NCBI GenBank assembly: GCA_016180235.1
Contig: JACPBQ010000002.1
Coordinates: 2,206-66,205 of the forward strand
Direction: 5' to 3'
Source of the DNA: Candidatus Woesearchaeota archaeon
GTDB lineage: Archaea; Nanobdellota; Nanobdellia; Woesearchaeales; GW2011-AR4
Length of the DNA stretch: 64,000 bases
Shown here in pieces: positions 3,065 through 61,297 of this stretch; position 1 is the stretch's first letter; each line of letters begins with the position of its first letter. A program made the position numbers and the translations under genes. Below the pieces are notes generated by a model, which was not told the origin of the DNA, searched no databases, and saw only the letters and a list, made by a program, of their open reading frames with translations.

Positions 3065-4273
3065 ATGCACCCTTTCACTTTCAAATACCAGCCAAAGACC
3101 TCAAAGGAGATAATAGGCCAGGAATCGGCAATAAAAAAACTAAGGGATTTTGTAATTAATTTCAAGAAGCAGAAAAAGAATGCAGCATTATTATACGGCC
3201 CTTCCGGAACCGGAAAAACAATAAGTGCCTATGCAATTGCTAAGGAACTGAACCTGGAAATTCTTGAAGTCAATGCCAGCGACGTTCGTAATGCCGACCA
3301 GATAAACTCTTTATTGGGCTCAGCAATAGGCCAGATGAGCCTGTTCTCAAAAGGAAAGCTGATTTTAGTGGATGAGATTGACGGCCTGTCAGGCACAAAA
3401 GACAGAGGCGGCTTGCAGGCAATTGCAAAATTAATAGAAAAATCATCATTCCCGATAGTGTTGACAGCAACAAACCCATGGGACTACAAGTTCAATAATT
3501 TAAGGAGAAGGGCTGAGATGATAGAATTTGCCCCATTGGACTACAAGGACATTTCCATTATCCTGAAAAGTATCTGCATCAATGAAAAGATAAAATTTGA
3601 AGAGGAAGTCCTTAAGGGCCTGGCCAGGAGGGCTGGAAATGATGCACGGGCAGCTATAAACGACCTGCAGACACTGGCAATGGAAGCAAAAGAACTGACA
3701 AAAGAAAGCCTTGAGGAATTGGGGGAAAGGAACAAATTGGAAAGCATGCCAAATGCCCTCGCCAAGATATTCAAGAGCACAGACCCGAAAGTTGCAATAG
3801 TTGCATTTGACGCTGTCGAGGAAAACCTTGATCAGCAATTGCTGTGGATTGATGAAAACCTGCCTAAGGAATACACAAATCCTGAAGATTTGGCAAAAGC
3901 ATATGACAAGTTAAGCAAGGCTGATATGTTTAGCAGAAGGATAAGAAGATGGCAGCACTGGCGTTTTCTTGTATACATAAACGCATTAATCACAGCAGGA
4001 ATTGCCGTTTCCAAAAAGGAAAAATATAAACACTATGTGCAGTATAAGCCAACAGGAAAGCTGCTAAAATTATGGTGGGCAAAGCAAAAATCAATGAAGA
4101 AAAAGGCCATTGCCGAAAAAATCGCTGAAAAAACGCACACATCAAAGAAAGAAGCCTTGAAAAGCACATTGCCATACCTGCAGGCTGCATTTAAAAAAAA
4201 CAGGGATTTCAGGGAGCAATTAACATTAGAATTGGATTTGAGCAGGGAAGAGGCTGAATGGCTGAGAAAATAA
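3065..4273 (+). CDS. rfcL: replication factor C large subunit (AAA+ clamp loader)
   Basis: Walker A LLYGPSGTGKT, then EVNASDVRN, LILVDEIDGL..DRGG and PIVLTATNPWD, the pattern of archaeal RFC-L. No SRC motif of the small subunit. Confidence 0.8.
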   Translation: MHPFTFKYQPKTSKEIIGQESAIKKLRDFVINFKKQKKNAALLYGPSGTGKTISAYAIAKELNLEILEVNASDVRNADQINSLLGSAIGQMSLFSKGKLILVDEIDGLSGTKDRGGLQAIAKLIEKSSFPIVLTATNPWDYKFNNLRRRAEMIEFAPLDYKDISIILKSICINEKIKFEEEVLKGLARRAGNDARAAINDLQTLAMEAKELTKESLEELGERNKLESMPNALAKIFKSTDPKVAIVAFDAVEENLDQQLLWIDENLPKEYTNPEDLAKAYDKLSKADMFSRRIRRWQHWRFLVYINALITAGIAVSKKEKYKHYVQYKPTGKLLKLWWAKQKSMKKKAIAEKIAEKTHTSKKEALKSTLPYLQAAFKKNRDFREQLTLELDLSREEAEWLRK

Positions 4274-4341
4274 CTTGCATAAAGTTACTACAAACTGATA
4301 ATTATTTTTCTCATTAAAACAACAATTTTCCATATCTTTGT

Positions 4342-4392
4342 CTCGGGATGCCGCAGGCATCCCAATACGCTAGTGTGCAGGCATGCACAAAA
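4342..4392 (+). promoter_or_regulatory. two-hairpin structured motif, copy 1 of 3
   Basis: GGGATGCC-gca-GGCATCCC, linker AATACGCTAG, TGTGCA-ggca-TGCACA. Differs from the copy at 43401-43449 at 2 linker positions over about 51 nt. Same architecture as 38138-38186. Confidence 0.7.
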
Positions 4393-4400
4393 AACAACAA

Positions 4401-4412
4401 ATTTTATAAAAT
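4401..4412 (+). promoter_or_regulatory. TATA-like box for glyS (leaderless-type spacing)
   Basis: attttataaaat centred about 27 nt upstream of the ATG at 4433. Confidence 0.45.
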
Positions 4413-4432: not shown

Positions 4433-5923
4433 ATGGAAAAATTAAGCATAGAGGACATGGCTGTTTTCTGCAAGAGGAAAGGTTTTGTCTATCCTTCCAG
4501 CGAGATATACGGCGGTTTTTCAGGATTCTGGGATTTTGGCCATTTGGGTGTTGAATTAAAGAACAACATAAAGGCAGAATGGTGGAGATACCATGTCCAG
4601 CAAAGAGAGGATATTGTCGGCATAGATGGCTCTATAATTACCCATCCGAAAGTGTGGCAGGCCAGCGGCCATGTCGAGAATTTTGAGGATATAATGCTGA
4701 AATGCTCAAAATGCAGGCAGGAAATAAGGGCAGACCATTTTATTGAGGAAAAATTAAAAACAAATGCAGAAGGCTCGAAGGTAAATGAAATAAACGATAT
4801 TATCAAAAAAAACAAATTGAAATGCCCAAGATGCAATTCCGATTTTGAAAAGATAGAGCAGTTCAATTTGATGCTTAAGACAAGCATTGGCCCGAAAGAG
4901 GACAAAAGCTCAGTATCCTACCTGAGGCCGGAGACAGCGCAATTGATATTTGCTGATTTCAAGCTGGTTGCTGATAATGCAAGATTAAAGCTTCCTTTTG
5001 GAATTGCACAAATCGGGAAAGGCTTCAGGAATGAAATAAGCCCAAGGGATTTTCTTTTCCGCTGCAGGGAATTTGAGATGATGGAAATAGAGTATTTTGC
5101 CCATCCGGAAAAAACCGATAAGTGCCCTTTCATAGACGAAATAAATGATGAAGAATTAAATTTCCTCACTGCAGAAATGCAGGAGAAAAAGCAAAATCCT
5201 ATAAGGATGAAAATAAAGGATGCATTGAAGAAAAAAATAATTTCGGAATGGCACGCTTACTGGCTGGCAACAGAGCAGAAATGGTTTGTAAATTTAGGGG
5301 CAAAGCAGGAAAACTTCAGGGTAAGGCAGCATCTGAAAAAAGAAAAAAGCCATTATGCCGTTGACACATGGGATTTAGAGTATAACTTCCCTTTCGGCTG
5401 GAAAGAGCTGCAGGGAATAGCTAACAGGGCTGATTTTGACCTGCAGCAGCACATGAAATTCTCAGGCAGTGATTTAAGCCTGTTTGACGAAGAAACAAAG
5501 AAAAAAATTGTTCCGCATGTTATAGCAGAGCCTTCCCAGGGAGTTGAAAGGGCTTTCCTTGTTTTTATGTTCGATGCCTACAATGATGACAAGAAAAGAG
5601 GGAATGTTGTCTTAAAATTGAACCCAAAACTTGCTCCAATAAAACTGGGGATATTCCCGTTGGTGAATAAATTAGATGATGAGGCAAAAAAAATATATGA
5701 TGCCTTAAAAAAAGATTTTAACTGCATTTTTGACAAATCGGGAAGCATTGGAAGAAGGTATGCAAGGGCCGATGAGACAGGAATTCCTTTTTGTATCACA
5801 ATTGATTTTGATACTCTGAAGGACAAGGCTGTTACAGTAAGGAATCGCGATGATACAAAGCAGGTAAGGGTAAAAATACAGGATTTAAATGAGACCATCT
5901 CCAAATTAATAAATAATCCATAA
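4433..5923 (+). CDS. glyS: glycyl-tRNA synthetase, archaeal/eukaryotic alpha2 type
   Basis: MEKLSIEDMAVFCKRKGFVYPSSEIYGGFSGFWDFGHLG, RPETAQLIF and FRNEISPRDFLFRCREFEMMEIEYF (class II motifs). I prefer the ATG at 4433 over the track GTG at 4373 because of the TATA spacing, and because the extension overlaps a repeat element. Confidence 0.9.
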   Translation: MEKLSIEDMAVFCKRKGFVYPSSEIYGGFSGFWDFGHLGVELKNNIKAEWWRYHVQQREDIVGIDGSIITHPKVWQASGHVENFEDIMLKCSKCRQEIRADHFIEEKLKTNAEGSKVNEINDIIKKNKLKCPRCNSDFEKIEQFNLMLKTSIGPKEDKSSVSYLRPETAQLIFADFKLVADNARLKLPFGIAQIGKGFRNEISPRDFLFRCREFEMMEIEYFAHPEKTDKCPFIDEINDEELNFLTAEMQEKKQNPIRMKIKDALKKKIISEWHAYWLATEQKWFVNLGAKQENFRVRQHLKKEKSHYAVDTWDLEYNFPFGWKELQGIANRADFDLQQHMKFSGSDLSLFDEETKKKIVPHVIAEPSQGVERAFLVFMFDAYNDDKKRGNVVLKLNPKLAPIKLGIFPLVNKLDDEAKKIYDALKKDFNCIFDKSGSIGRRYARADETGIPFCITIDFDTLKDKAVTVRNRDDTKQVRVKIQDLNETISKLINNP

Positions 5924-6448: not shown

Positions 6449-6661
6449 GGGATTTGATAAGCGCATGTTTTATCAGACTAAAAACCGTAGCTCAGACTGA
6501 GAAGACTGAGGTCTTCGGCTAAGGAGAGCATTTCAAAAATCTCAAACTACGCTGAAGACGTAGGTGATTGGTACAGGTATACTGGCCAACTTAAATCCTG
6601 GGTTCAAATATCCCAGAGGGCCATTAAAATCCCTCAGGATTTGAAATTCCCAGCGGTCCCA
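6449..6661 (+). tRNA. tRNA-Phe(GAA), interrupted by about five insertions (or a decayed pseudogene)
   Basis: Acceptor GGGA(6449-6452)+CCG(6485-6487) pairs with CGGTCCC(6654-6660), discriminator A. D-stem GCTC/GAGC. Perfect anticodon arm CTACG-CTGAAGA-CGTAG (6547-6563). T-arm CTGGG-TTCAAAT..CCCAG. Exon pieces sum to 74 nt and insertions to 139 nt. A T-run follows. Confidence 0.6.
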
Positions 6662-6668
6662 CTTTTTT

Positions 6669-8840
6669 CTATGCCCCTAAAGAGCTTGTCAGTATCTGCC
6701 CTGCAATTATATTAAATAATAGCATTACAATAAGGCTTATTATGCAGTAAAGCACTGTGCTTCTTATCATGTTATTTCCAAGCGAATATTTTTCATTCAG
6801 CTTGTCAGAGCCGTTCTCAATGCCGTTGACAAGTATTGTCAGGATATAAGTTATCTGCACAACATACAACCCTACAATTATCTGGAAATAATATGTCGGT
6901 ATTCCTTCTCCAAAAATCGCCATCAGGCCTGCTCCCTGGGCTGCAGAAGATCCGGCTGTAACATCCTGCAGCTGTGAGCCGAGCTTTCCAAGGATTGTGG
7001 TTACCATCGAAGTTATCCCTATGACAATTCCGGCTATTGCCGGTGTCAAAAATTTTATCTGGGAATTCATTGAAGAGATTATGTCTGCCAATAAATCCTG
7101 CAGCCTTTCATTCACGCTGTGTATTTCCTTTATGTACCTTGAGACGTTTGTCAGGGCCTGGGCTGCGATTACTGGCCCTTTTTTTACCGATTGGACAAGG
7201 ACCTTCATCGAGCTTTCTATGAGGTTTGACGGAAAACTTATCAAAGCCCCGTGCGCAGGGTCAAATATTGCCTGCTTTATCCCCATCCCGAGTTTTTTTA
7301 TGTTAGCGCTCACAAGGCTGAAAAAATTTCCCGAGACCGTGCCTTCCATCATGTTTGCGACCTTGTCGAATGCTATCTCTGCAGGAAGCCCGTCTCCCAG
7401 CCTGTTTCCGAGCTGGAACAATGCGGATGCAAATTCCATCTCCAGTTTTTTCGCCCTCTCCCTTATCTTTATGATGTTCTTTGACCTTAGCCTGTAGAAT
7501 ATGCCTATTCCCAGTCCTAAAGATAATGTCACCAGCAGGCTTAATATAGCCGCGCCAAGGCCGTAAGGCCCCTCTGTCTCTCCTGTTGTAGCGCTTTCCC
7601 TGTATTCAAGCAGGCAGAATTTCTTGAGGCATGGGCTTAATGCGTCTTCAGCGCCAAAGCCGATGTCTGTAAAATTGATGCTGTGCAGCAGTACAGGGCT
7701 TAATCCTATTATGAGCAGCAAAGCGCCTATAAATATGCTGAACACAAGGGGATTTATCAGGAATTCTATTTTTCCAAGTTTTATTATGACGTTCCTGTAT
7801 TTTTTGAGCTCTGGGTTTTCCTCAGAAATATCCGTCTGGCCGTATCCTGTCGGCCTCCTGGATAATACCGCTTTCCCGAGGTAATATACGGCAACAGGCA
7901 AAGCAACATTGTACAGTGCAGCTATATGGTACCATGCCACTCCTTCCATAAAGCTGACAACCAAGGGCAGTATGACCAGGCCAAGAATCGGCAAAATGAT
8001 GCCAAGCATGTGCAGCATCGTTATTGGGCTTTGGAGATTATGGGCATAATGCAGCATCTTCTCGTAAGTCTCGTCCAGTATGACGTCCAATGACTTGTCC
8101 AATGCATTCAGCCTTCTTTCCTCGCTTCCCTCGTACAATGAAGATTCAATAAGGTGGAAAGATTCTATGAACTCGAAATTCCATCTCTTCCATGTTTCCA
8201 GGTATATGTCAAGGCTTTCCTTTATGCTGTCGTATTTTTCTGTCTCGACGTCCCAGAGCACTTTCTTGAGGTCAAGGCTCAGCGGAGGCGCAAGATGGTC
8301 TGCCGCAAACTCAATTGCATTTTCCAGGTTGCTCGTATGCCTCATGTATGTTACCACATAAAATACGCAAAGCACCATCTGGTTGCTTGCCTTTAGCCGC
8401 CAGTTGTTTGCAATATAGTCCGGAAGCTTTGCAAAAGGCTTTATCAGGGAGATTCCTATTATGAAAAAGAAAAGAATGAAAAACACAGACTGCAGCAAAA
8501 GGAAGGAAAGCAGCGATCCAAGTAATATTATGAAGATCGGGGCCAAGATTGAAAAGGAGACCGCTCCTGAAGGGGTTATATCAAGATGGGATATGCTTAT
8601 GTTATCCAGCATATCCTCCTCTTTTTTCTTATCCGGCTTTATCTTCAGTATCTTCTCGCTCAGGCCGCATAGCTTCTCGTATATCGTAAAGTGCTTTGGC
8701 ATGTATTCCTGCCTGAATTCCCGGTATTCCCTGGAGGTGATTTTAGGGGAATAAGTCTTTGCGCCCAGCTCTTTCTCTATCTGCTGCCTGTAGAACTCTG
8801 CCAAGTTCTTCATCCTTTCCTTGTCGCTTTGCGTCGGCAT
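6669..8840 (-). CDS. polytopic membrane platform protein of a type IV filament system (FlaJ/TadC/PilC-like, T2SS-F-type domain)
   Basis: 723 aa with many TM helices. The cytoplasmic segment FASALFQLGNRLGDGLPAEIAFDKVANMM..IKKLGMGIKQAIFD..FPSNLIESSMKVLVQSVKKGPVIAAQALTNVSRYI fits the GspF/T2SS-F domain pattern. Same strand and directly downstream of the FlaI-type ATPase. Confidence 0.6.
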   Translation of the reverse strand: MPTQSDKERMKNLAEFYRQQIEKELGAKTYSPKITSREYREFRQEYMPKHFTIYEKLCGLSEKILKIKPDKKKEEDMLDNISISHLDITPSGAVSFSILAPIFIILLGSLLSFLLLQSVFFILFFFIIGISLIKPFAKLPDYIANNWRLKASNQMVLCVFYVVTYMRHTSNLENAIEFAADHLAPPLSLDLKKVLWDVETEKYDSIKESLDIYLETWKRWNFEFIESFHLIESSLYEGSEERRLNALDKSLDVILDETYEKMLHYAHNLQSPITMLHMLGIILPILGLVILPLVVSFMEGVAWYHIAALYNVALPVAVYYLGKAVLSRRPTGYGQTDISEENPELKKYRNVIIKLGKIEFLINPLVFSIFIGALLLIIGLSPVLLHSINFTDIGFGAEDALSPCLKKFCLLEYRESATTGETEGPYGLGAAILSLLVTLSLGLGIGIFYRLRSKNIIKIRERAKKLEMEFASALFQLGNRLGDGLPAEIAFDKVANMMEGTVSGNFFSLVSANIKKLGMGIKQAIFDPAHGALISFPSNLIESSMKVLVQSVKKGPVIAAQALTNVSRYIKEIHSVNERLQDLLADIISSMNSQIKFLTPAIAGIVIGITSMVTTILGKLGSQLQDVTAGSSAAQGAGLMAIFGEGIPTYYFQIIVGLYVVQITYILTILVNGIENGSDKLNEKYSLGNNMIRSTVLYCIISLIVMLLFNIIAGQILTSSLGA

Positions 8841-14451: not shown

Positions 14452-15054
14452 TTATTTTCCGCCAAACATTCTGCCAAAATCCATTCCAAGCCTCTTGAAG
14501 CCTGCTAATTTCTCCCTTTCGCCTTCCCCGCCGGTAACGAATGATATAATGACGCCAAAGACAACAAGCATTATGAAGATTGCCAGCGCATCAGAGCCGA
14601 ATATTCTTTCCAGCCAGTCATCGAATCCTGCTGCGTACCATCCTGCTGAACTGCCAAATATTATTATTATTGCAACAATGGAAAAGAATCCTATCCATCC
14701 GGGCATGGACATCCCCAAAGTGACCTTGTCATGGGCAAAAACCCCTATCAGGATCATTAGCGAAATGATGCCGACTATAACAAGGCCGACCTGAGGCAGT
14801 GCGGCATTTATGATTAAAACGGGGTCAAATCCTGCAGGCAGGTCTCCTGTTATGTGCGGTATGACAATTATGAGGGCAAAAATAAGCGCTATCGCGCTGT
14901 TCATGTTCCTCTTTTCCTCTCCAAGAATCTTTGATTTTTCCAGAACCGCAAAAACTATTGTAAATATCAGGAGAAAAGGCAGCAAAACGTCCATAAGGCC
15001 CCATCTCTCCAGTGACCTTCCAAATTCCTCAAGCACAAAATTCTCTGAAGCCAA
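14452..15054 (-). CDS. polytopic membrane protein, paralog 2 of 3
   Basis: 200 aa. The N-terminal motif DVLLPFLLIFTIVFAVLEKSKILGEE is shared with paralog 3. Confidence 0.6.
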   Translation of the reverse strand: MASENFVLEEFGRSLERWGLMDVLLPFLLIFTIVFAVLEKSKILGEEKRNMNSAIALIFALIIVIPHITGDLPAGFDPVLIINAALPQVGLVIVGIISLMILIGVFAHDKVTLGMSMPGWIGFFSIVAIIIIFGSSAGWYAAGFDDWLERIFGSDALAIFIMLVVFGVIISFVTGGEGEREKLAGFKRLGMDFGRMFGGK

Positions 15055-38083: not shown

Positions 38084-38137
38084 ACATTTAAAAAAGGCCA
38101 ATATTCTCTATCAAAATAAAAAAATCGTAAACTGCGT

Positions 38138-38186
38138 TTCGGGATATCGTAGATATCCCTAGACGCTGTTTTACGGGCACGTAAAA
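38138..38186 (+). promoter_or_regulatory. two-hairpin structured motif, copy 2 of 3 (abuts ileS ATG)
   Basis: GGGATATC-gta-GATATCCC, linker TAGACGCTG, TTTTACG-ggca-CGTAAAA, immediately followed by the ATG at 38187. Confidence 0.7.
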
Positions 38187-41100
38187 ATGGAAAAATATGA
38201 TCCTCTGAATCAGGAACCGGAAATATTGAAGTTCTGGAAAGACAATAAGCTGCATGAAAAAGCCAATCAGAAGAATGCAAAAGGCAAAAAGTTCTATTTC
38301 TGCGACGGGCCCCCATACACTTCCGGCAAGGTGCATCTTGGCACTGCATGGAACAAATCCCTGAAAGATTCCATTATCCGCTATAAGAGAATGCAGGGAT
38401 TTAACGTCCTGGACAGGGCAGGATACGACATGCATGGCCTGCCGACAGAGAATGCAGCAGAAAAAGAGCTCAAGATAAAAAACAAAGATGAAATCATGAA
38501 ATTTGGGGTTGACAAGTTCACAAAAGCCTGCAAGGACTTAAGCATAAGTAACCTTAAGATAATGAACCAGGACTTCATGCGCTTGGGCGTGTGGATGGAT
38601 TTTGAAAATGCATACCAGTCCGTGAGCAAAGAGTACATTGATGGCGAGTGGTGGCTTGTAAGGAAGGCGCACGATGCCAAAAGGCTTTATGAAGGCCTAA
38701 GGAGCATGGCATGGGACTGGAAAGACCAGACAGCCTTGGCAAAGCATGAGCTGGAATATAAGGATGTGAAAGACAAGTCAATTTTTGTAAAGATGCAGGT
38801 AAAAGGCAAAGAAAATGAGTTCCTGATAATCTGGACAACTACGCCATGGACAATAGCATTTAATCTGGGGATTATGGCTCATCCTGATTTTGAGTATGTA
38901 AAATGCAGAGTTGGAAGGGAATTCTGGATTGTCGCAAAGTCCCTTGCCTCTGTTTTCATTTCCGGAGTCGCTGGAAAAAAATTTGAGATAGTGGAGGAAT
39001 TCAGGGGCAGGGAGCTTGAAGGCATTGAATACGTTCATCCTTTTTTTAATGAGCTGAAGGAGCATTATGAAAGATTGAAGTCAAAGCACCCAAAAGTGCA
39101 TGCGGTTGTTTTAAGCGAGGAATATGTTGATACCAGCTCTGGCACAGGCTTGGTGCATATGGCCCCTGGCTGCGGTCCGGAAGATTATGAAGTTGGCCAC
39201 AGGAACAATATCCCGCCCTGGAATCTTGTCGAGGAAGATGGTGTTTATGGAAAAGCTATGGGAAAGTTTGCAGGAAGGCACGCAATAAAGGACAATTATT
39301 CTTTTGTAGAGGATTTGAAGGGAAAAAATGCAGTTGTGGGGGAAACAGAAGTTGAGCACTCCTATCCTCATGGCCAGAGGAGCCACCAGCCCGTCATATT
39401 CAGGACGACAAAGCAGTGGTTCTTTAAGGTCGAAGATATCAAGCAGGATATGATAAGGGAGAATAACGAGATAAAATGGGTTCCGACAGCAGGGTATAAT
39501 GCATTTAATTCCTGGCTGGAAAACTTAAGGGACAATTCAATTTCAAAGCAAAGGTATTGGGGCACTCCTGTTCCCATCTGGAGGAATATTGAGGATGAGG
39601 ATGATTATATTGTTATCGGCTCTATCCAAGAGCTGGAAGAATTATCGGGAAAAAAAGTCGATGAGCCGCATATACCCTGGATAGACAAGATTCTGATAGA
39701 AAAAAAAGGCAGGAAATACAAAAGGGTCCCGGATATCCTGGATGTTTGGGTAGATGCAGGCACAGCCTCATGGAATTCATTGAATTTCCCGCAAAACAAA
39801 GAAAACATGAAAAGGTATTTTCCCGCTGACTTCATTCTTGAGGGCAAGGACCAGATACGCGGATGGTTTAACCTGCTGCACGTCGCTTCAATGATTGCTT
39901 TAGGCAAAAAAAGCTTTGATGCTGCCTACATGCACGGTTTCATCAATGATGCGATGGGCAGGAAGATGTCCAAGAGCCTTGGAAATTATATTCTGCCTGA
40001 AGAAGTCATAGCAAAATACGGCGCTGACACCCTGAGGTATTACATGATTACCGGGGCAAATGCCGGGCTGGACCTGAACTATAATTTTGATGACATGAAG
40101 GTGAAGTACAGGAACCTTACAGTTTTGTGGAATATCCATAATTACATCATTGATTTGGCGAGGAACTCCGGCTTAAACCCAAAGGAAATTAAAATCAAAG
40201 CCGATGATATATCCATCGAGGAAAAATACATATTTTCAAAGCTCAACTCTGCAATAAGGAAAACAACAAAGCTGTATGACGGGTACAAGCTAAATGAGGC
40301 CCCTTTAATTGCTGAAGAATTGTTTTTGGCATTGAGCAGAATATATATCCAGATTACAAGGGAAAAATCAACGGACGAAAAAGCAAGGCAGGCAGTGTTA
40401 TATGCCATATACTATGTTTTTATGGGAATTTTGAAGCTGTTTGCCCCTGCCTCCCCTTTCATAACAGAAGCAATGTACCAGAATCTGAAGAAGGAATTTT
40501 CCCTGGAAGAGGAAAGCGTGCATCTTCTTGGCTGGCCGAAATGCATTGAGAAACTGATTAACAAAGGGTTAGAAGATGAGATGGACTCAATAAGCGAGGT
40601 TACCCAGTCGATATTGTCATTAAGGGAAAAGATAAGCATGGGCCAAAGATGGCCATTGCAGGAAGCCATTGTAGTTACAAAAGATGAGAAGACAATAAAA
40701 GCCGTTGAAAAGCTGAAAAGCATAATAAAAAGGCAGACCAATATAAAAGAGATAGAAATACAGCAGTCATTGCCAGGAATTAAAACAACAATAAAAGCGG
40801 ATTATTCGCAGCTGGGCCCGGATTTCGGAAAGAAGGCCCCGGAGATAATTGCAAAATTGATGGCAGAAAGCCCGGAAACTATCCTTAAGCATATAGAAAA
40901 AGACGGCAAATTCCCGTTAAAGATAGGCAAAGAAACTGTCAATATAGTCAAAGAGCATTTAATCGTGACAAGGAAAGTCCCTGAGCCGTATGTCGAAGGC
41001 TCGTTTAAATCCGGATTTGTTTATTTAAACAAGGACGTTGATGATGAGCTGGAAGCTGAGGGATTTGCCCGCGAACTTATGCGCCGCGTCCAGGCCCTGA

Positions 41101-41321
41101 GGAAGGAAGCCGGGCTGCAAAAGAAAGATAGGATAACACTGTTTGTAAAAACCGATGCCGAGCTTTCAAAGACACTTAATATCTTCCATGAAACAATCAA
41201 GGAGAAAGTTGGCGCAGAGCACATGACCATATCTGATTTAAATCCAAACAAAAAGCACAAATTCACTAGCAAAGAAAAGGTCAGGGACAGGAAGTTTGAA
41301 TTGTTCTTGGAGAAGGTTTAA
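38187..41321 (+). CDS. ileS: isoleucyl-tRNA synthetase
   Basis: PPYTSGKVHLGTAWNK (HIGH region), KMSKSLGN. 1044 aa with archaeal-type architecture. Confidence 0.95.
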   Translation: MEKYDPLNQEPEILKFWKDNKLHEKANQKNAKGKKFYFCDGPPYTSGKVHLGTAWNKSLKDSIIRYKRMQGFNVLDRAGYDMHGLPTENAAEKELKIKNKDEIMKFGVDKFTKACKDLSISNLKIMNQDFMRLGVWMDFENAYQSVSKEYIDGEWWLVRKAHDAKRLYEGLRSMAWDWKDQTALAKHELEYKDVKDKSIFVKMQVKGKENEFLIIWTTTPWTIAFNLGIMAHPDFEYVKCRVGREFWIVAKSLASVFISGVAGKKFEIVEEFRGRELEGIEYVHPFFNELKEHYERLKSKHPKVHAVVLSEEYVDTSSGTGLVHMAPGCGPEDYEVGHRNNIPPWNLVEEDGVYGKAMGKFAGRHAIKDNYSFVEDLKGKNAVVGETEVEHSYPHGQRSHQPVIFRTTKQWFFKVEDIKQDMIRENNEIKWVPTAGYNAFNSWLENLRDNSISKQRYWGTPVPIWRNIEDEDDYIVIGSIQELEELSGKKVDEPHIPWIDKILIEKKGRKYKRVPDILDVWVDAGTASWNSLNFPQNKENMKRYFPADFILEGKDQIRGWFNLLHVASMIALGKKSFDAAYMHGFINDAMGRKMSKSLGNYILPEEVIAKYGADTLRYYMITGANAGLDLNYNFDDMKVKYRNLTVLWNIHNYIIDLARNSGLNPKEIKIKADDISIEEKYIFSKLNSAIRKTTKLYDGYKLNEAPLIAEELFLALSRIYIQITREKSTDEKARQAVLYAIYYVFMGILKLFAPASPFITEAMYQNLKKEFSLEEESVHLLGWPKCIEKLINKGLEDEMDSISEVTQSILSLREKISMGQRWPLQEAIVVTKDEKTIKAVEKLKSIIKRQTNIKEIEIQQSLPGIKTTIKADYSQLGPDFGKKAPEIIAKLMAESPETILKHIEKDGKFPLKIGKETVNIVKEHLIVTRKVPEPYVEGSFKSGFVYLNKDVDDELEAEGFARELMRRVQALRKEAGLQKKDRITLFVKTDAELSKTLNIFHETIKEKVGAEHMTISDLNPNKKHKFTSKEKVRDRKFELFLEKV

Positions 41322-42395: not shown

Positions 42396-43391
<996 letters not shown>

Positions 43392-43397
43392 CACCTA

Positions 43398-43449
43398 GTT
43401 TCGGGATGCCGCAGGCATCCCCAGACGCTAGTGTGCAGGCATGCACAAA
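43398..43449 (+). promoter_or_regulatory. two-hairpin structured motif, copy 3 of 3 (pyrB-pyrI spacer, abuts pyrI ATG)
   Basis: GGGATGCC-gca-GGCATCCC, linker CAGACGCTAG, TGTGCA-ggca-TGCACA, then aa and the ATG at 43450. Confidence 0.7.
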
Positions 43450-43902
43450 ATGAAAAAGGAAGTAAGCATATCGGCAATAAAGGAAGGGACTGTTATAGAC
43501 CATATTCCAAGCAATGTGACATTAAAGGTAGCTGAAATACTCAATCTTGATGATGTTGCAGGAATAATATCAATAGCCACTAACCTTCCAAGCAAGAAAA
43601 TGGCCAAGAAAGGCATAGTGAAAATAGGAGACAAGCTATTAACGCAGGATGAAGTCAATAAAATAGCAGTCATAGCCCCTGATGCCACGGTTAATATAAT
43701 AGAAAATTATAATGTAAAAAGAAAACTAAAAGTTTTATTGCCAGATATAATAGAAAAAATAGTCAAGTGCTCAAATCCAAACTGCATAACAAACAATGAA
43801 AAGGCAGAAACAAGGTTTTATGTTCTCAATAAGACTCCTTTGAAATTAAAGTGCCATTATTGCGAAAGGGCAATGAATAAGGAAGATATAGTGCTTTTGT
43901 AA
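43450..43902 (+). CDS. pyrI: aspartate carbamoyltransferase regulatory subunit
   Basis: MKKEVSISAIKEGTVIDHIP plus the zinc domain CSNPNCIT..CHYCE. The in-frame ATG at 43441 lies inside hairpin 2 of the motif. Confidence 0.9.
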   Translation: MKKEVSISAIKEGTVIDHIPSNVTLKVAEILNLDDVAGIISIATNLPSKKMAKKGIVKIGDKLLTQDEVNKIAVIAPDATVNIIENYNVKRKLKVLLPDIIEKIVKCSNPNCITNNEKAETRFYVLNKTPLKLKCHYCERAMNKEDIVLL

Positions 43903-48809: not shown

Positions 48810-48953
48810 GGGCCCGTGGTCTAATCCGGCATGACGTTTCCTTCGCAGGGAAAAGACTCCGGGATGCTCGAAATTAGTTTTTCGGCACGGAAATTCAAAT
48901 ATCCCAGAGGGAGACTGCAAATCCATTGGGTTTTGAGAGTCCCGGCGGGTCCA
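48810..48953 (+). tRNA. tRNA-Ala(CGC) with two insertions flanking the T-loop
   Basis: GGGCCCG/CGGGTCC acceptor with G3:U70 (alanine identity pair). D-arm GTC-TAATCCGGCAT-GAC. Anticodon arm TTTCC-TTCGCAG-GGAAA. T-stem CCGGG(48859-63)/CCCGG(48941-45). TTCAAAT at 48894-48900. Insertions of 30 and 40 nt, and 74+70=144 nt. Confidence 0.75.
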
Positions 48954-52293: not shown

Positions 52294-52513
52294 GCCGACG
52301 TCGCATAACCTGGCATTGCGGTGGCCTTGAGAGCCACTTCCCGTAAGGGTATCTCGGTCAGCTTTTTTGCTTGCGCAAAAAACCTGGGAAAAACAGGGAA
52401 TTCCTCGTTTTTGCCCGGAATTCAAATTGCAGAGTAAGCAAATAGCTGGAGAAATTCAAATATCCCAGAGGGCAGCTAAAATCCCTCGGGATTTGGGAGT
52501 CCGGGCGTCGGCG
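52294..52513 (+). tRNA. tRNA-Ser(UGA), class II, with two insertions around the T-loop
   Basis: Acceptor GCCGACG/CGTCGGC, discriminator G. D-arm GCA-TAACCTGGCAT-TGC. Anticodon arm GTGGC-CTTGAGA-GCCAC. Long variable arm (CCC-gtaa-GGG). T-stem 3' CCGGG (52501-05). TTCAAAT at 52455-61. Insertions of about 97 and 39 nt. Confidence 0.7.
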
Positions 52514-54172: not shown

Positions 54173-56707
54173 TTATTTTTCTGTTGCCCCTATGCCTGCT
54201 TTCAGCATTGATTCTGCGACAATTAATGTACTATCTGTTTGCTTGACTTCTGCTGCATTACCTTTCAAGTCATCCTTATAGTGAAGATGATTGGCAATTA
54301 CCTGTGCTACGTTTCTTGTGTCCTCTTTTGTGTAGCCAGCTACCAGCATAGCTACATTGCCGTCATTCTCATACAGCTCAATCCTTCCAACTCCTGGCTC
54401 AAACCCTAAAGTGCAGTCTTCAGGATTTCCCAATAGCTCTGCAGTTGCAACATTAGCGCATGGTCCTCCAACAAGTATTGCATTTATTTCCCTAATGTTT
54501 TTGACTTCGGATGCCAGTTTAGTTGCGCCAACATCGATTCTTTGTATTTTTACTGCTCCACCTACTGCTTTTTCAGTTTCAGTAAAAGTCGCTTTAGACT
54601 CTGTTATGTAAACTAAAGGGACTCTCTGGCTTTGAGGATATTCTATAGACACTTCTTGAGGAGCGTTGCTTGGAGTGCTTCTTTTCGCATAAGCTCCGTA
54701 GCTGCTGTATGCATATTCATTCCTATCATCATCGTCAGGCGTGATGAAGTTATGGTTCTGGCTTGGGTCTAAAGACAATCTTGCCTCTCCTCCAGTTGCA
54801 TTCAAATTAAAAATAAACGAGGTTGGCGCCAAATCATCATAGTGGTTGCTGTTCGGGGTTCCAATTAAAACTGTAACACCCTGAGATGAAGAATTTTCTA
54901 TAGAGATATTTGTGCCGTACTGCGTGTTTAAGGAAACCACGTTAGAGCCTATTGTGTTGTCACCATTTATATCAACAAGTATATCAAAATCATTGGACCC
55001 TATTGAAGATGCATTGTATACCTTAAATGTCCTTCCACCCAGCTTAATCTGTGATATCTCAAACAAATCCTGCCCATCAGGGCCAACTACTCCGCTTAGC
55101 ACAGAGCCAACAGAAATTGGCCTTTCAATCCTATCCCCGCTTCCAAGCTCATCAAACTTGATTATAGGGCTGTCTGATGTTATTTTATCCGCTCCCCTAT
55201 AGCGCAAAGCAAAGCTTGACCTTTCCCCATTCTTGTCAGTTTCATCAGTTAAAATAAAATAGTCGTCTTTTGTTATTGTTTTGTTTTCCTGGACAATAAG
55301 ATCATCGTCATTGTCGCCAAATCTTATAGTGCTGCCTGAGACAGCATGCATAATTGGCAATTTTGCCCTGTTCCCGTTCTTATCTACAAATTCCAATATG
55401 TAATCATCTGAGCCAGAGGCTTTTATCGCAATCTCCTGGGTTTTAGGGCTGCTTAATCCCTGATATGATACATCCCAGTTAGAAGTAAAAAGCAGATCTT
55501 TTTGGTCAATAACATTGCTTAGATTTCCCCCTTTTGGGACATAGTAATTGTCATCAGCCGTCATATTTATTCCTATTCTGTCAATTTTAAATATTGAATT
55601 GTCATCGCTGCCTTCTATCGTTACATGAGCGCCATCTATAGTCTTTTCATTGACTTTTAGCTCATGGCTGCTTGAGCTGTCAGTTATGTCTGTATCTTTT
55701 AATTCAAGCTTTTGCGCTCCCAGGAAAAATGAGGCCATGTGCACGCCTCCGGCATAATCCTGGTAAAGGATTTCAGTAACTCCGATTATTGTTCCATCTG
55801 AAAGCTTGCCTGTTTCGCCATCTCTAAGCAGCCTTGTTGATTCGCCATTTACCAAAAATTTTGCATTTGTAGAATCTACAAATTCAAGCGTTACCTCAAA
55901 ATCTTGGCCATTGAATGTGTATGTTTTTGTATCGCCCTCTACCAAAGAATCCTTTATTGGCCCTGTCATCAGGCCCAGCAATATCTGGCCTTGGTTTGCG
56001 CCATTCCTTGTAGCTTGCACTATTGTGTATTTCTTTCCTAATATTGTTATGTCTACATCTTCAAAATCAGAAAGGAAATTTCCCGTAGTTGAGGATCTTC
56101 CATTTATGTCATCCACATCGCTCTCTAAAGCAGAAGTAAATTCCAGCTCGTATCTTACAATCTGCTTTCCAGATTGAAAGTATAGAAAATCAGCAGTTAC
56201 GTCGGTGTCATCTTCCAATAGCTGCACAAATCCTGTTGTAGCATCCTCAAAATATAATCTTTGGTCATAGGCTGCGCTGCCCTTGGTGTTCCTGGTTTTT
56301 CCCTTTTCCAATAATACTTCCAGTTCAGCGTCATCAATAAAAGAGTTGCTGGTTATAGTAGCAATAGATTCCTTGTTTGTGCCGGATTTTAAGTTCTCAG
56401 CCAATTCCAAAATTTTTGTTGAGGTGCCAACTTTCCAAGCATCGCCTTCTAAAACGGTCTCTGTTTCTGTTGCAACAGGTGTTGTTGCGGCAAACTGCAA
56501 GCTTGCAGCTATGTCACTTGCGCCTATAACATCCTCTGCCGCAGCCCTGTCTCCTACAACCAGAACGCCATTAAATTTTCCATCCTTTATGAATGGAGCC
56601 GGGTAATTGACCAAATCAGTTGCTACCGCTCCAGTGATTGTAGCGCCTACCATGCTGGCTCCAATTCCCAGAGCCATTATCTTATTCACAATTTTTCTGA
56701 TTTTCAT
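54173..56707 (-). CDS. S-layer protein (Methanococcales-type N- and C-terminal domains)
   Basis: N-terminus ALGIGASMVGATITGAVATDLVNYPAPFIKDGKFNGVLVVGDRAAAEDVIGASDIAASL and C-terminus INAILVGGPCANVATAELLG match the S-layer N/C domain patterns of methanococcal S-layer proteins. Confidence 0.75.
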   Translation of the reverse strand: MKIRKIVNKIMALGIGASMVGATITGAVATDLVNYPAPFIKDGKFNGVLVVGDRAAAEDVIGASDIAASLQFAATTPVATETETVLEGDAWKVGTSTKILELAENLKSGTNKESIATITSNSFIDDAELEVLLEKGKTRNTKGSAAYDQRLYFEDATTGFVQLLEDDTDVTADFLYFQSGKQIVRYELEFTSALESDVDDINGRSSTTGNFLSDFEDVDITILGKKYTIVQATRNGANQGQILLGLMTGPIKDSLVEGDTKTYTFNGQDFEVTLEFVDSTNAKFLVNGESTRLLRDGETGKLSDGTIIGVTEILYQDYAGGVHMASFFLGAQKLELKDTDITDSSSSHELKVNEKTIDGAHVTIEGSDDNSIFKIDRIGINMTADDNYYVPKGGNLSNVIDQKDLLFTSNWDVSYQGLSSPKTQEIAIKASGSDDYILEFVDKNGNRAKLPIMHAVSGSTIRFGDNDDDLIVQENKTITKDDYFILTDETDKNGERSSFALRYRGADKITSDSPIIKFDELGSGDRIERPISVGSVLSGVVGPDGQDLFEISQIKLGGRTFKVYNASSIGSNDFDILVDINGDNTIGSNVVSLNTQYGTNISIENSSSQGVTVLIGTPNSNHYDDLAPTSFIFNLNATGGEARLSLDPSQNHNFITPDDDDRNEYAYSSYGAYAKRSTPSNAPQEVSIEYPQSQRVPLVYITESKATFTETEKAVGGAVKIQRIDVGATKLASEVKNIREINAILVGGPCANVATAELLGNPEDCTLGFEPGVGRIELYENDGNVAMLVAGYTKEDTRNVAQVIANHLHYKDDLKGNAAEVKQTDSTLIVAESMLKAGIGATEK

Positions 56708-59654: not shown

Positions 59655-61142
59655 TTACTTTATTACGACAACGCCTGGGGATTTTTCCAGCTCTTCTCTG
59701 GCAAATTTTAGTTTGAGCTTATTTTCTGAATAGATTGTAAAGATTTTTTCTCCTTTTGTTGTTTTATCGTTGATATGCTTATGCAGATATATGCCCGCAC
59801 CATTGTCGGCTGGGGCTCCTGCGACCCTTGCTAATCTTGCTATAATTTTGTTGTCTATTTTTTTGACAATTCCTTTCTTTGCTGACTTGACATCAAACTT
59901 GAATCTTCCTATTTTTATATCCTCAGGGTCAAAAATTTTGCCATCCTGGGCTTTTATTATCTCTTTCATTTTTTTATAGGCCTTCCCTGAATCTAAAATT
60001 TCCTCTGCCTTGCCTTTGCTGTCTTTGATTCCAGCCATTTTAAAGAGTTCGCCAGCCATTGCTATGCATTTTTTTTCCAGGTCAGGGGGCCTTCTCTTGT
60101 CTCTCCTCAAAATCCACAGGACATCCCTTGCCTCCAATGCAGGCCCTATGCCGTTTCCTATAGGCTGCTTTCCGTCAGTGATAATGACGCTGACATGCTT
60201 CCTCAGCCTTTTCCCCACTTCATCAAACAATTTTTTTAGCTTTAAAGCCTCCTGTCTGTTTTTGACTTTGCTGCCATTGCCTATCGGTATGTCTATCAGA
60301 ATGTGAGTGCTTGACACGGAATATTTCTTGGCCATTATCGAAGCAAGCAGCTGGCTTTCCGCGTCAATCCCCAGAGTTTTCTCAACGCCTATTATCTTGT
60401 CATCTGCAGGAGCAAGGTTCAAAGAGCCGCCCCAGACAATGCATGCATTTGTTTTTGCGATGATTTCTTTCATCCTGCTGATAGGGAAGGAGACTTTTGC
60501 AAGAACCTCCATGGCATCGGCAGTTCCTGCAGGGCTTGTTATGGACCTGCTTGATGTCTTTGGCATTGTAAGGCCTGCTGCCGCAATTATAGGCACTAAA
60601 ACCATCGTGGTCCTGTTACCGGGAATTCCGCCAATGGAATGCTTGTCAATCACCGGATATTTGTCGAGCTTCAGTTTGTCCCCGTGGTTGACCATAGCTT
60701 TTGTAAGCATTATTGTCTCGTTTATTGACATGAGGTTTGTATAGCACGCAGCAACAAAGAAAGTAAGCTCTGAGTCGCTGAGCTTGTTATGCACAATATC
60801 CCACACAATCTGGTCTATCTCCTTCCTGTTCAATGTTTTGCCATCGAGCTTTTTTCTTATAAAATCTATTGAAAGGGGCTTTCTGGCAAGCGCTATGCTG
60901 ACTTTATCATTCTTTTTTAAGTTTAAAGAATCTATGACTTCCTCATATACCCCTATTCTTCCTTCCGGGACTACTTTGCTGCTTTCGGCTATATTCGCGA
61001 CTACGGTCTCAACTCTTTTTCCCTTGTTTATCTTTATCCTGTCAAGATGGTGTATATCGAACTTGATAGCGTCTTTAATGTTAAGCACAGCTACTAAAGG
61101 CCCGCCGGTTGCAATGTCCATGTCTTTTATTTTCAATTTCAT
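59655..61142 (-). CDS. AMP phosphorylase (thymidine phosphorylase family with archaeal N-terminal extension)
   Basis: MKLKIKDMDIATGGPLVAVLN N-domain. IDKHSIGGIPGNRTT (TP-family phosphate loop). 495 aa. GGTGA RBS. Confidence 0.8.
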   Translation of the reverse strand: MKLKIKDMDIATGGPLVAVLNIKDAIKFDIHHLDRIKINKGKRVETVVANIAESSKVVPEGRIGVYEEVIDSLNLKKNDKVSIALARKPLSIDFIRKKLDGKTLNRKEIDQIVWDIVHNKLSDSELTFFVAACYTNLMSINETIMLTKAMVNHGDKLKLDKYPVIDKHSIGGIPGNRTTMVLVPIIAAAGLTMPKTSSRSITSPAGTADAMEVLAKVSFPISRMKEIIAKTNACIVWGGSLNLAPADDKIIGVEKTLGIDAESQLLASIMAKKYSVSSTHILIDIPIGNGSKVKNRQEALKLKKLFDEVGKRLRKHVSVIITDGKQPIGNGIGPALEARDVLWILRRDKRRPPDLEKKCIAMAGELFKMAGIKDSKGKAEEILDSGKAYKKMKEIIKAQDGKIFDPEDIKIGRFKFDVKSAKKGIVKKIDNKIIARLARVAGAPADNGAGIYLHKHINDKTTKGEKIFTIYSENKLKLKFAREELEKSPGVVVIK

Positions 61143-61147
61143 TTACT

Positions 61148-61210
61148 TCACCTGAAAATAAAAGGCTTGAAAAATTTCAATTTTTCATTGTCTTTGATTT
61201 TGAGTTTCAT
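61148..61210 (-). CDS. mini-ORF u1 (20 aa) re-encoding the AMP phosphorylase N-terminus
   Basis: ATGAAACTCAAAATCAAAGAC.. encodes MKLKIKDNEKLKFFKPFIFR. Its TGA stop lies inside the AGGTGA RBS of the AMP phosphorylase gene. Confidence 0.35.
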   Translation of the reverse strand: MKLKIKDNEKLKFFKPFIFR

Positions 61211-61232
61211 TTTTTAAATAAAATTTCAAAAT

Positions 61233-61283
61233 TTAAGGCTTGAAAAACCTTTGTTTTTCACTGTCTTTGACTTTTAATTTCAT
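61233..61283 (-). CDS. mini-ORF u2 (16 aa), paralog of u1
   Basis: ATGAAATTAAAAGTCAAAGAC.. encodes MKLKVKDSEKQRFFKP. Confidence 0.35.
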   Translation of the reverse strand: MKLKVKDSEKQRFFKP

Positions 61284-61297
61284 TTTCCTGCAGAACT

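Follow-up and report, generated by a model that had tools for sequence, protein, structure and literature searches.

Immediately 5' of ileS, the isoleucyl-tRNA synthetase gene of a Candidatus Woesearchaeota archaeon (assembly GCA_016180235.1, contig JACPBQ010000002.1), two small hairpins follow one another, and the ATG at 38187 comes directly after the final base of the second. The locus lies in a 64,000-nucleotide stretch of the contig, which was analysed as a whole and is called the window here, and it raises the question of whether such an element is a leader RNA dedicated to the gene it precedes or one member of something more widespread. The original prediction, made from the sequence alone, had described a covarying two-hairpin element recurring three times in the window, proposed that in two copies hairpin 2 directly precedes the ATG and would occlude the ribosome-binding region, and pointed out that two of the three downstream genes encode aminoacyl-tRNA synthetases. 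The results below indicate that the ileS element is probably one copy of a lineage-specific, modular, hairpin-forming family of interspersed repeats of Woesearchaeales-type DPANN archaea, similar in kind to repetitive extragenic palindromes and bacterial interspersed mosaic elements (REP/BIME), BOX elements and MITEs (miniature transposable elements with inverted repeats). The overall pattern fits a mobile modular repeat and not a gene-specific cis-regulator.

A family of modular hairpin repeats

The two-hairpin sequences are present at the three sites first described, all on the plus strand (the ileS copy at 38136-38186, the other two as given in Table 1), and a repeat search places the three in one family. 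A covariance model built from 75 relatives of the element recovers exactly these copies in the window (73.7-75.1 bits, E about 1e-17), the best score elsewhere in the 64 kb being about 7 bits; minus-strand matches of 18.8-26.4 bits overlap these copies and are palindromic echoes of them. RNA folding of the three copies into two hairpins gives z-scores of -4.7, -4.0 and -2.9 relative to dinucleotide shuffles. Assignment to a known RNA family was rejected, as had been anticipated: Rfam 15 gives no match at gathering score over the whole window and, with E up to 10, nothing but noise on the element and on a seven-hairpin array.

Hairpin 1 of the ileS copy has an 8-bp stem and a GNA triloop, with three invariant outer Watson-Crick pairs and two non-canonical positions. 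Throughout the family, the GTYTC/NAKAC frame around hairpin 1 combines the three invariant Watson-Crick pairs with a C.N position that is never paired and one odd covarying position, where the combinations are C with T (50 times), T with G (18) and T with C (5). The flanks that had been taken for unpaired are thus indeed conserved, but they frame hairpin 1 and contribute these three pairs. Loops are GNA triloops, in 59 of the 75 copies, and the tetraloops GGCA, GGCG, GGAA and GGTA.

Covariation was assessed on the 75-sequence alignment. Hairpin 1, which the search pattern partly fixed, is paired at 99.7% and shows double compensatory changes at 4/4 positions that the pattern left free, while hairpin 2, which lay outside the pattern, is paired at 91.6% with double changes at 3 pairs, counts that are not independent events because the alignment members are related repeats. 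The covariation score of 0.343, against a shuffled mean of 0.133, was reached by 0/500 shuffles, and when the partners are slid by 1-3 columns the paired fraction drops to 27-52% and the score to at most 0.117. Mismatches are G.T in 16 cases and A.C in 2 (p = 0.0013), an excess that identifies the gene-sense strand, running towards the downstream gene, as the one with kept structure. Selection on secondary structure, one of the claims of the original prediction, is borne out by this strand asymmetry and by hairpins that are kept through compensatory change; the two compensatory pairs separating stem 1 of the ileS and pyrI copies (GC/GC versus AT/AT) are real as well. The second stem had been described as wholly different between copies yet still pairing. 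Its pairing is kept, but the differences reflect a few recurring module types (TTTTACG, TTGTACG, TTCTACG, TGTGCA, TGTGCG, TATGCA, TGTCCC and others), linked to one another by compensatory steps, and not free covariation between two copies. Pairing of the GGCA/GGTA loop of hairpin 2 with the 5' flank, as a pseudoknot, was also considered and rejected: on inspection, few copies have the UGCC or UACC that this would need, with no consistent covariation.

Relatives were sought by an IUPAC pattern scan of one genome per species and by a looser pattern scan of metagenomes. The former returned 21 archaeal matches in six DPANN metagenome-assembled genomes (MAGs) labelled Nanoarchaeota or Woesearchaeota, two of the six being labelled 'Methanosarcinales' but having a sequence context of the same AT-rich DPANN type, and 5 bacterial matches with non-complementary stems, which are chance. 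The latter matched 86 stretches. Removal of duplicates left 85 distinct copies from AT-rich Woesearchaeota/Nanoarchaeota MAGs and metagenomes, and the covariance model gives about 105 matches of at least 45 bits in 472 kb. There are 3 copies in the 64-kb window and 7-10 strict matches per partial MAG. A viral or plasmid origin was rejected, the scan of viral contigs having given no true match and just 2 GC-rich chance matches with mismatched stems.

The family is modular, its members having one to seven hairpins. Every hairpin unit starts with GT and ends with AC; hairpin 1 (GTYTC-GGGNNNNC-GNA-GNNNNCCC-NAKAC) is followed by an ACRCT linker, by one to about six more hairpins of 6-9 bp with GNNA loops, and by an A-run. 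Among the loci of relatives and metagenome stretches compared with the window (designated by L-numbers), L008 has two hairpin-2 modules in tandem, the first a variant of type A and the second of type B; four hairpins precede the ATG in L082 and L096, and in L103 an additional insert separates hairpin 1 from the terminal hairpin. The longest array described here, L015 4337-4548 (minus strand), has seven GT...AC hairpins, different from one another, in the interval from hairpin 1 to a promoter, and further multi-hairpin arrays of this sort occur in L021, L044 and L104. Array unit types include GTGGGGTGC-aaa-GCACCCCAC, GTGTGGTAC-ttc-GTACCACAC, GTGCAATGC-aaa-GCATTGCA, GTTGTACG-ggaa-CGTACAAC and others; the family therefore comprises more unit types than the two found in the window.

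Table 1. Elements, promoters and genes at the three repeat sites of the window
Feature	Position	Strand	Basis
Third copy, GTCTC ... TGCACA aaaaa, upstream of the glyS promoter	4340..4394	+	Repeat search, covariance model
glyS TATA box TTTATAAA, downstream of the third copy; 22 nt, then ATG 4433 (leaderless geometry)	4403..4410	+	Sequence
Ancestral ileS TATA box TTTAAAAA, BRE-like (B recognition element-like) aaaca upstream	38087..38094	+	Kept in element-free orthologous loci
5' module of the inserted block, aaaATAAAAAAATcgtaaactgc	38113..38135 (boundary +/-4 nt)	+	Filled/empty site comparison
ileS copy, 5' part of frame, GTTTC	38136-38140	+	Sequence
ileS copy, hairpin 1 with frame (GTTTC, GGGATATC-gta-GATATCCC, TAGAC)	38136..38164	+	Sequence, RNA fold, covariation, wobble count
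ileS copy, hairpin 1, GGGATATC-gta-GATATCCC	38141-38159	+	Sequence
ileS copy, linker after hairpin 1, TAGACGCTG		+	Sequence
Conserved linker GCT-G, portion of ACRCT(A)G	38165..38168	+	75-sequence alignment
Hairpin 2, type A, TTTTACG-ggca-CGTAAAA	38169..38186	+	Sequence, fold, module types, covariation
ileS, isoleucyl-tRNA synthetase, 1044 aa, element inserted at its start	38187..41321	+	Pfam
pyrI copy, GTTTC, GGGATGCC-gca-GGCATCCC, CAGACGCTAG, TGTGCA-ggca-TGCACA, aa	43398..43449	+	Sequence, covariance model, Pfam

Filled and empty sites at orthologous loci

Comparison of orthologous loci reveals a presence/absence polymorphism. Four ileS loci share a common upstream synteny (PolB, small ORFs, ileS). 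The site is filled in the window, to whose IleRS a homology search finds an identical protein annotated as that of a Candidatus Woesearchaeota archaeon, and it is empty in L115 (87% IleRS identity), L116/L117 (81%), L118 (79%) and L010 (77%), which retain a plain leaderless promoter. An identical GAGATAAACATTTAAAAAAG block is shared by the window, L115 and L118 in the alignment. In L115, the intergenic region measures 35 nt (GAGATAAACATTTAAAAAAGGCCAAATTTTCTTCAAATCCAA, then ATGGAAAAATAC) and the ATG lies 24 nt after the TATA box, in leaderless geometry; the window has the same promoter and most of the spacer, followed by ATAAAAAAATCGTAAACTGC, the element and ATGGAAAAATAT. Since the site is empty in relatives with an intact promoter, the window carries an insertion of about 70-75 nt at the start codon. 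From this comparison, the block (about 38113-38186) appears to have been inserted where the ancestral leaderless transcription start and the start codon of ileS coincide. Its 5' module, missing at the empty sites, is similar to the CCGTAAAATA-N5 module that many start-adjacent copies have on their 5' side; it may include a degenerate duplicate of ATGGAAAAAT, of which 8/11 positions match in a target-duplication test. In L116 (2415-2500), about 60 nt of other, non-repeat sequence lie between the conserved TATA box and the ATG of ileS, so that the interval from promoter to start has been remodelled more than once in this lineage.

The two other window sites behave likewise. At glyS, the window and L105 are filled upstream of the promoter, with compensatory differences in both hairpins, and L043 (79-84% identical) is empty. 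The third site is the junction between pyrB (stop at 43391) and pyrI (ATG at 43450) in the otherwise tightly packed pyrBI-DKCEF operon. It is filled in the window, L086, L017, L045 and L081, whereas L116, at a comparable PyrB identity of 76-83%, has an overlapping ATGA and no element. The L081 copy has another hairpin-2 type and another 5' module, which suggests that this junction was probably hit more than once. The remaining window operon (pyrI-D-K-C-E) is tightly packed, making it very likely that the pyrB/pyrI copy is co-transcribed. Four further filled/empty pairs were found (L003/L085, L005/L041, L095/L070 and L030/L003).

Sequences at the insertion boundaries may reflect target duplication. 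In L017 and L045 the insert has ATGAAAAA on both flanks, and AACAACAA(A)TTTT borders the glyS copy. A class-wide test for duplication of the start-codon region gives a match of 7.38/11 against a null of 6.99 +/- 0.16 (p about 0.01), which favours duplication, though not cleanly. A direct repeat of about 30 nt, ATGATTTAyGGkTTTATwGCTTTAGGGTrA, surrounds one copy in L011 (about 3560-3700, minus strand); it far exceeds the duplications of 4-9 nt seen elsewhere, and insertion may accordingly not use a classical transposase. In L087 (about 1860-1950), an element lies in frame inside a CobW/GTPase-like ORF, where hand translation gives MKKTENISVSGYRRYPNTLFYGHVK-TPITIITG, that is, 24 extra codons after Met-Lys; such in-frame copies are exceptional (one was seen). 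The L096 orthologue, MKTPITIITG, starts directly after a four-hairpin array.

Placement at start codons and promoters

The promoter grammar of the window is very regular. For most first genes, a purine-rich BRE (cGAAA-like) and a TATA 8-mer are followed after about 22 nt by the ATG, a geometry that implies mostly leaderless mRNAs. GGTG-type Shine-Dalgarno (SD) sequences precede a minority of window genes (for example 6669-8840, 14452-15054, 54173-56707 and 59655-61142), and none is present before ileS or pyrI. Occlusion of a ribosome-binding region, as first proposed, therefore has no target and had to be abandoned. The ileS TATA box is intact, and the 22-nt rule predicts a transcription start near 38117; the predicted mRNA would thus carry an SD-less leader of about 70 nt, nearly all of it taken up by the two hairpins, and hairpin 2 would have the AUG at its foot. 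An internal promoter that would keep ileS leaderless was rejected, since the region 22-30 nt upstream of the ATG contains nothing TATA-like. An intrinsic terminator was rejected as well: read on the sense strand, an A-run comes after the hairpins, and T-runs are confined to the antisense strand. A tRNA-like or split-tRNA origin was likewise dismissed, since ARAGORN, with introns allowed or not, finds no tRNA gene in the 64-kb window.

Position classes were assigned to 81 copies with flanks. Single copies ending 0-3 nt (A-only) before an ATG account for 24, and halves of head-to-head dimers for 32; the other 25 were counted as single copies upstream of a BRE/TATA, a bin that takes in a few arrays really ending at the ATG (L082, L096, L103) and L015 5370 (convergent). 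Distances to the ATG fall into two groups, of about 20 and of about 52-64 nt. Position and orientation, scored from crude ORF calls, are both biased: about 65 copies point at the start of a downstream gene and about 10 at a gene end, tandem copies are sense in 28 cases versus antisense in 5 (p = 7e-5), and copies between divergent genes outnumber those between convergent ones by 28 to 3 (p = 5e-6). A generic repeat, scattered with no relation to gene starts and with no covariation, had been set against the original prediction; what is found is a bias to the 5' side and in orientation, together with covariation.

About half of all copies precede the BRE/TATA of the gene they face and so would be outside its mRNA, and the third window copy is among them. 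The true glyS ATG is at 4433 and this copy does not touch it, so that in the window a position at the start codon is confined to the ileS and pyrI copies. The repeat itself misleads mechanical ORF calls, which replace the real starts by spurious ones within hairpin 2: for pyrI the ATG of GGCATGCACA at 43441, for glyS a GTG at 4373.

Head-to-head dimers form about 30 distinct junctions, mostly between divergent genes, with a spacer mostly of 15-16 nt and a recurring TG..ATCTCAAGCC-like motif. In most of them the outer hairpins adjoin BRE/TATA at both ends: the left half runs ATG, 22 nt, TATA/BRE, hairpin 2, hairpin 1, GAGAC and the 15-16-nt spacer, and the right half continues GTCTC, hairpin 1, hairpin 2, BRE/TATA, 22 nt, ATG. 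Start-adjacent copies often have a TATA-like 8-mer 5-6 nt upstream of GTYTC. The downstream genes are unrelated housekeeping genes (PDCD5-like, Rpe, AroDE, TatD, S19e, S8e, L18e, an ABC ATPase, Lhr helicase, PurQ, PdxT, fibrillarin, RimK, NMD3, aIF2-beta and TreT). The presence of two aminoacyl-tRNA synthetases among the three window genes is a coincidence, and the link to such genes is contradicted both by this diversity and by the element-free ileS orthologues.

On the probable reading of a mobile repeat, units insert on the 5' side of genes in sense orientation at either of two landing sites: directly at the start codon, in which case the insert seems to have a duplicate of the start-codon region on its two sides, or immediately upstream of BRE/TATA, often as head-to-head dimers between divergent promoters. 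At ileS, the block entered between the ancestral leaderless promoter and the ATG after the split from the 87%-identical relative, turning a leaderless gene into one with a structured, SD-less leader. Mobility might be provided by an enzyme acting in trans. Hairpins may be retained since transcripts would tolerate just those copies that fold compactly and are sense-oriented; an antisense copy would put runs of T5-6, which are archaeal terminators, into the mRNA, a plausible orientation filter. The element may also affect mRNA stability or translation. Several observations weigh against a simple mobile repeat. The S19e copy is kept with intact hairpins in L003 and L085 at 66% amino-acid identity, as is the pyrB/pyrI copy at about 70% PyrI identity; such deep retention suggests purifying selection or concerted evolution, not neutral junk. 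Convergent intergenic regions are depleted, the opposite of what is expected of a selfish repeat filtered only by harmlessness, and the G.T bias persists in head-to-head dimers (8:0), though no canonical promoter reads them in sense. A Pfam scan of about 29 of roughly 60 window ORFs shows no transposase, no autonomous parent element (two outward-facing copies around an ORF) was seen in the loci examined, the flanking duplications vary from 4 to 30 nt with modest statistical support, and at some sites, such as L003 versus L085, the old spacer looks replaced and not simply inserted into. The dimer bias, the avoidance of convergent regions and the deep retention keep functional readings alive.

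One of these readings sees a functional RNA module, co-opted or disseminated for gene expression in an organism with leaderless translation, acting 5' of the AUG by being cut off to leave a leaderless mRNA, by presenting the AUG at the foot of a helix, or by protecting against 5'-3' exonuclease. It draws on the A-only interval of 0-3 nt between start-adjacent copies and the AUG, on pyrI, which belongs to a tightly packed operon, is no longer coupled to pyrB through ATGA and still has no SD, on the sense-strand wobble bias and the GNA/GNNA loops, which suit a single-stranded sense molecule, and on the S19e and pyrI copies, retained over a long time with compensatory changes, among them a G.T intermediate in L045. 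Yet half of the copies are placed upstream of their facing gene's promoter, and many of these have no promoter from which they could be transcribed; the same genes are expressed in close relatives that have no element, Rfam gives no match to a known ribozyme or processing motif, and manual inspection reveals no consistent pseudoknot or SD-like sequence; we regard this explanation as unlikely. Its mobile form, an expression cassette for leaderless-translating organisms in which an array directly 5' of an AUG enables the use of that AUG, is equally doubtful. Cleavage at the A-run would recreate a leaderless 5' end, a punctuation like that by tRNAs in mitochondria, or initiation could be SD-independent and hairpin-adjacent, and copies upstream of promoters would process or stop read-in transcripts. 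If true, this would be an archaeal RNA element of a new kind and would add a new way to uncouple the genes of an operon.

Action at the DNA level would shift the function to promoters, with a protein binding non-template hairpins or the TCGGG/CCC.A.AC.CT flanks, or with arrays that shield adjacent promoters, particularly divergent ones lying back to back, against one another or against transcription reading in. The 9:1 preference for divergent over convergent regions, dimers with both ends mostly a few nucleotides from a BRE, a TATA-like 8-mer 5-6 nt before GTYTC that in standard geometry would put the transcription start inside hairpin 1, and a wobble bias that extends to apparently untranscribed dimers all speak for it. 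Compensatory change at non-constant stem positions is unexpected for duplex recognition, however, and a true cruciform would be intolerant of G.T, because the opposite strand would bear A.C; moreover, copies occur within operons and in the L087 ORF, outside any promoter context, and many window promoters work with no element. A promoter-associated DNA element is quite improbable on this balance. As the main explanation, a duplex-DNA transcription-factor operator was discarded on two grounds: stem positions that are not constant are complementary without exception, and the wobble bias is specific to one strand. Least probable by far is the dedicated cis-regulatory leader, in which a signal would make hairpin 2 mask the translation start of aminoacyl-tRNA synthetase or other genes, as riboswitches, T-boxes or attenuators do. 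The location at the ileS and pyrI AUGs, the covariation and a possible pairing of the type A 5' module CCGTAAAA with the 5' arm of hairpin 2 (manual inspection) are in its favour. The distribution already largely refutes it, as the downstream genes are functionally incoherent, ileS orthologues at 77-87% identity lack the element, the glyS copy would be outside the mRNA and no SD is available for masking. Beyond short linkers there is no conserved unpaired core resembling a ligand pocket. Nor does the 5' module covary with the type of hairpin 2, a type B hairpin 2 being combined in L102, L067 and L010 with a 5' module of the CCGTAAAATA type; a switch between the CCGTAAAA module and the hairpin-2 5' arm was rejected, the module being unchanged when hairpin 2 is of type B.

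Other repeats of the window, significance and known systems

A second, unrelated family of structured repeats is present in the window at 6603-6655, 48894-48946 and 52455-52507 (all plus strand) and in L043 at 2936-2953. Its consensus is TTCAAATATCCCAGAGGG-N11-AAATCCCTCrGGATTTGrrA-TCCcGGCG, with a predicted 15-pair hairpin, and all copies are intergenic; ARAGORN with introns allowed finds no tRNA in it, and Rfam at E up to 1 no known family. Two tandem 59-nt repeats, 81% identical and 73 nt apart, occupy 61155-61286, and related 31-nt pieces (59944-59974, 61117-61147 and 61185-61215) repeat the start of the minus-strand gene 59655-61142 (reverse complement ...AAAATGAAACTCAAAATCAAAGAC). Together these look like duplicated gene-start segments.

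To our knowledge, small interspersed palindromic repeats are well studied in bacteria and barely described in archaea, and for DPANN lineages, whose genomes are small and compact, we found no published description of such repeats in the literature. The family to which we assign the ileS element is abundant, constrained in structure on one strand, and aimed at gene starts and promoters rather than at gene ends. Essential leaderless genes such as ileS can gain a predicted leader of 70 nt, structured and SD-less, and still function, and ATGA-coupled operon genes such as pyrB/pyrI can be separated by a block of hairpins, which raises testable questions on translation initiation and mRNA processing in uncultured archaea. 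On the practical side, the repeat is a source of false 'riboswitch-like' calls and of assembly or annotation artefacts (spurious GTG/ATG starts, in-frame insertions), and a potential marker for strain typing.

Among known systems, T-box-type leader RNAs of aminoacyl-tRNA synthetase genes share the position of a structured element directly upstream of the start codon. The element described here differs in having no specifier/antiterminator architecture and no Rfam match, in not being confined to aminoacyl-tRNA synthetase genes and in being missing from close ileS orthologues. Rickettsia palindromic elements provide a precedent for a palindromic repeat in frame within a protein gene, as in L087, but an in-frame copy is exceptional here and the sequences are dissimilar.

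The similarity to REP/BIME is more extensive. Both are short, GC-rich, imperfect palindromes dispersed between the genes of a single lineage in many extragenic copies, often co-transcribed with neighbouring genes; hairpin 1 measures 19 nt, or 29 nt with its frame, a conserved 'head' (GTYTC) stands beside the stem, and several stem variants coexist per genome. Unlike REPs, which are described mainly at gene 3' ends and between operon genes, the present repeat is biased to the 5'/promoter side and to sense orientation, and it shows apparent target duplications. It also differs in being archaeal, from an AT-rich DPANN lineage, and in that its arrays keep unlike hairpin types in a fixed order. Documented features of REP/BIME include heterodimers joined head to head, a head that is unpaired, and mosaic clusters (PMC3733652, PMC2817692, PMC3116915); the dimers and clusters correspond to the about 30 junctions of unlike partners and the clusters of up to seven hairpins found here. 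The head reads GTYTC, or AGYGT.T on the other strand, and is neither a GTAG nor a CGTC tag; a RAYT (REP-associated tyrosine transposase, IS200/IS605-like) was not found by the Pfam scan of about 29 window ORFs. With neither such a head nor a transposase in about half of the window ORFs, 'REP/MITE-like' serves as a working description and implies no membership of a named family.

A census of MITEs places a Woesearchaeal genome among the most MITE-dense of archaea, at 105 per Mb (PMC11602168). With MITEs, the Correia/NEMIS elements of Neisseria and the BOX elements of Streptococcus pneumoniae (boxA-boxB(n)-boxC), the repeat shares a non-coding, multi-copy nature, a length of 50-250 nt, a variable number of internal modules, co-transcription near gene starts with a stable RNA fold, and presence/absence polymorphism between close relatives, seen here at ileS, glyS, pyrB/pyrI and four other loci. 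An inverted-repeat architecture may be common to them too, the 5' module here resembling a partial reverse hairpin 2 and hairpin 2 lying at the 3' end. The present family has no known parent insertion sequence and apparently no defined terminal inverted repeats with a target duplication of fixed length; each 'terminal repeat' is itself a hairpin. It further differs from these elements in the precision with which it lands at the start codons or BRE edges of leaderless genes.

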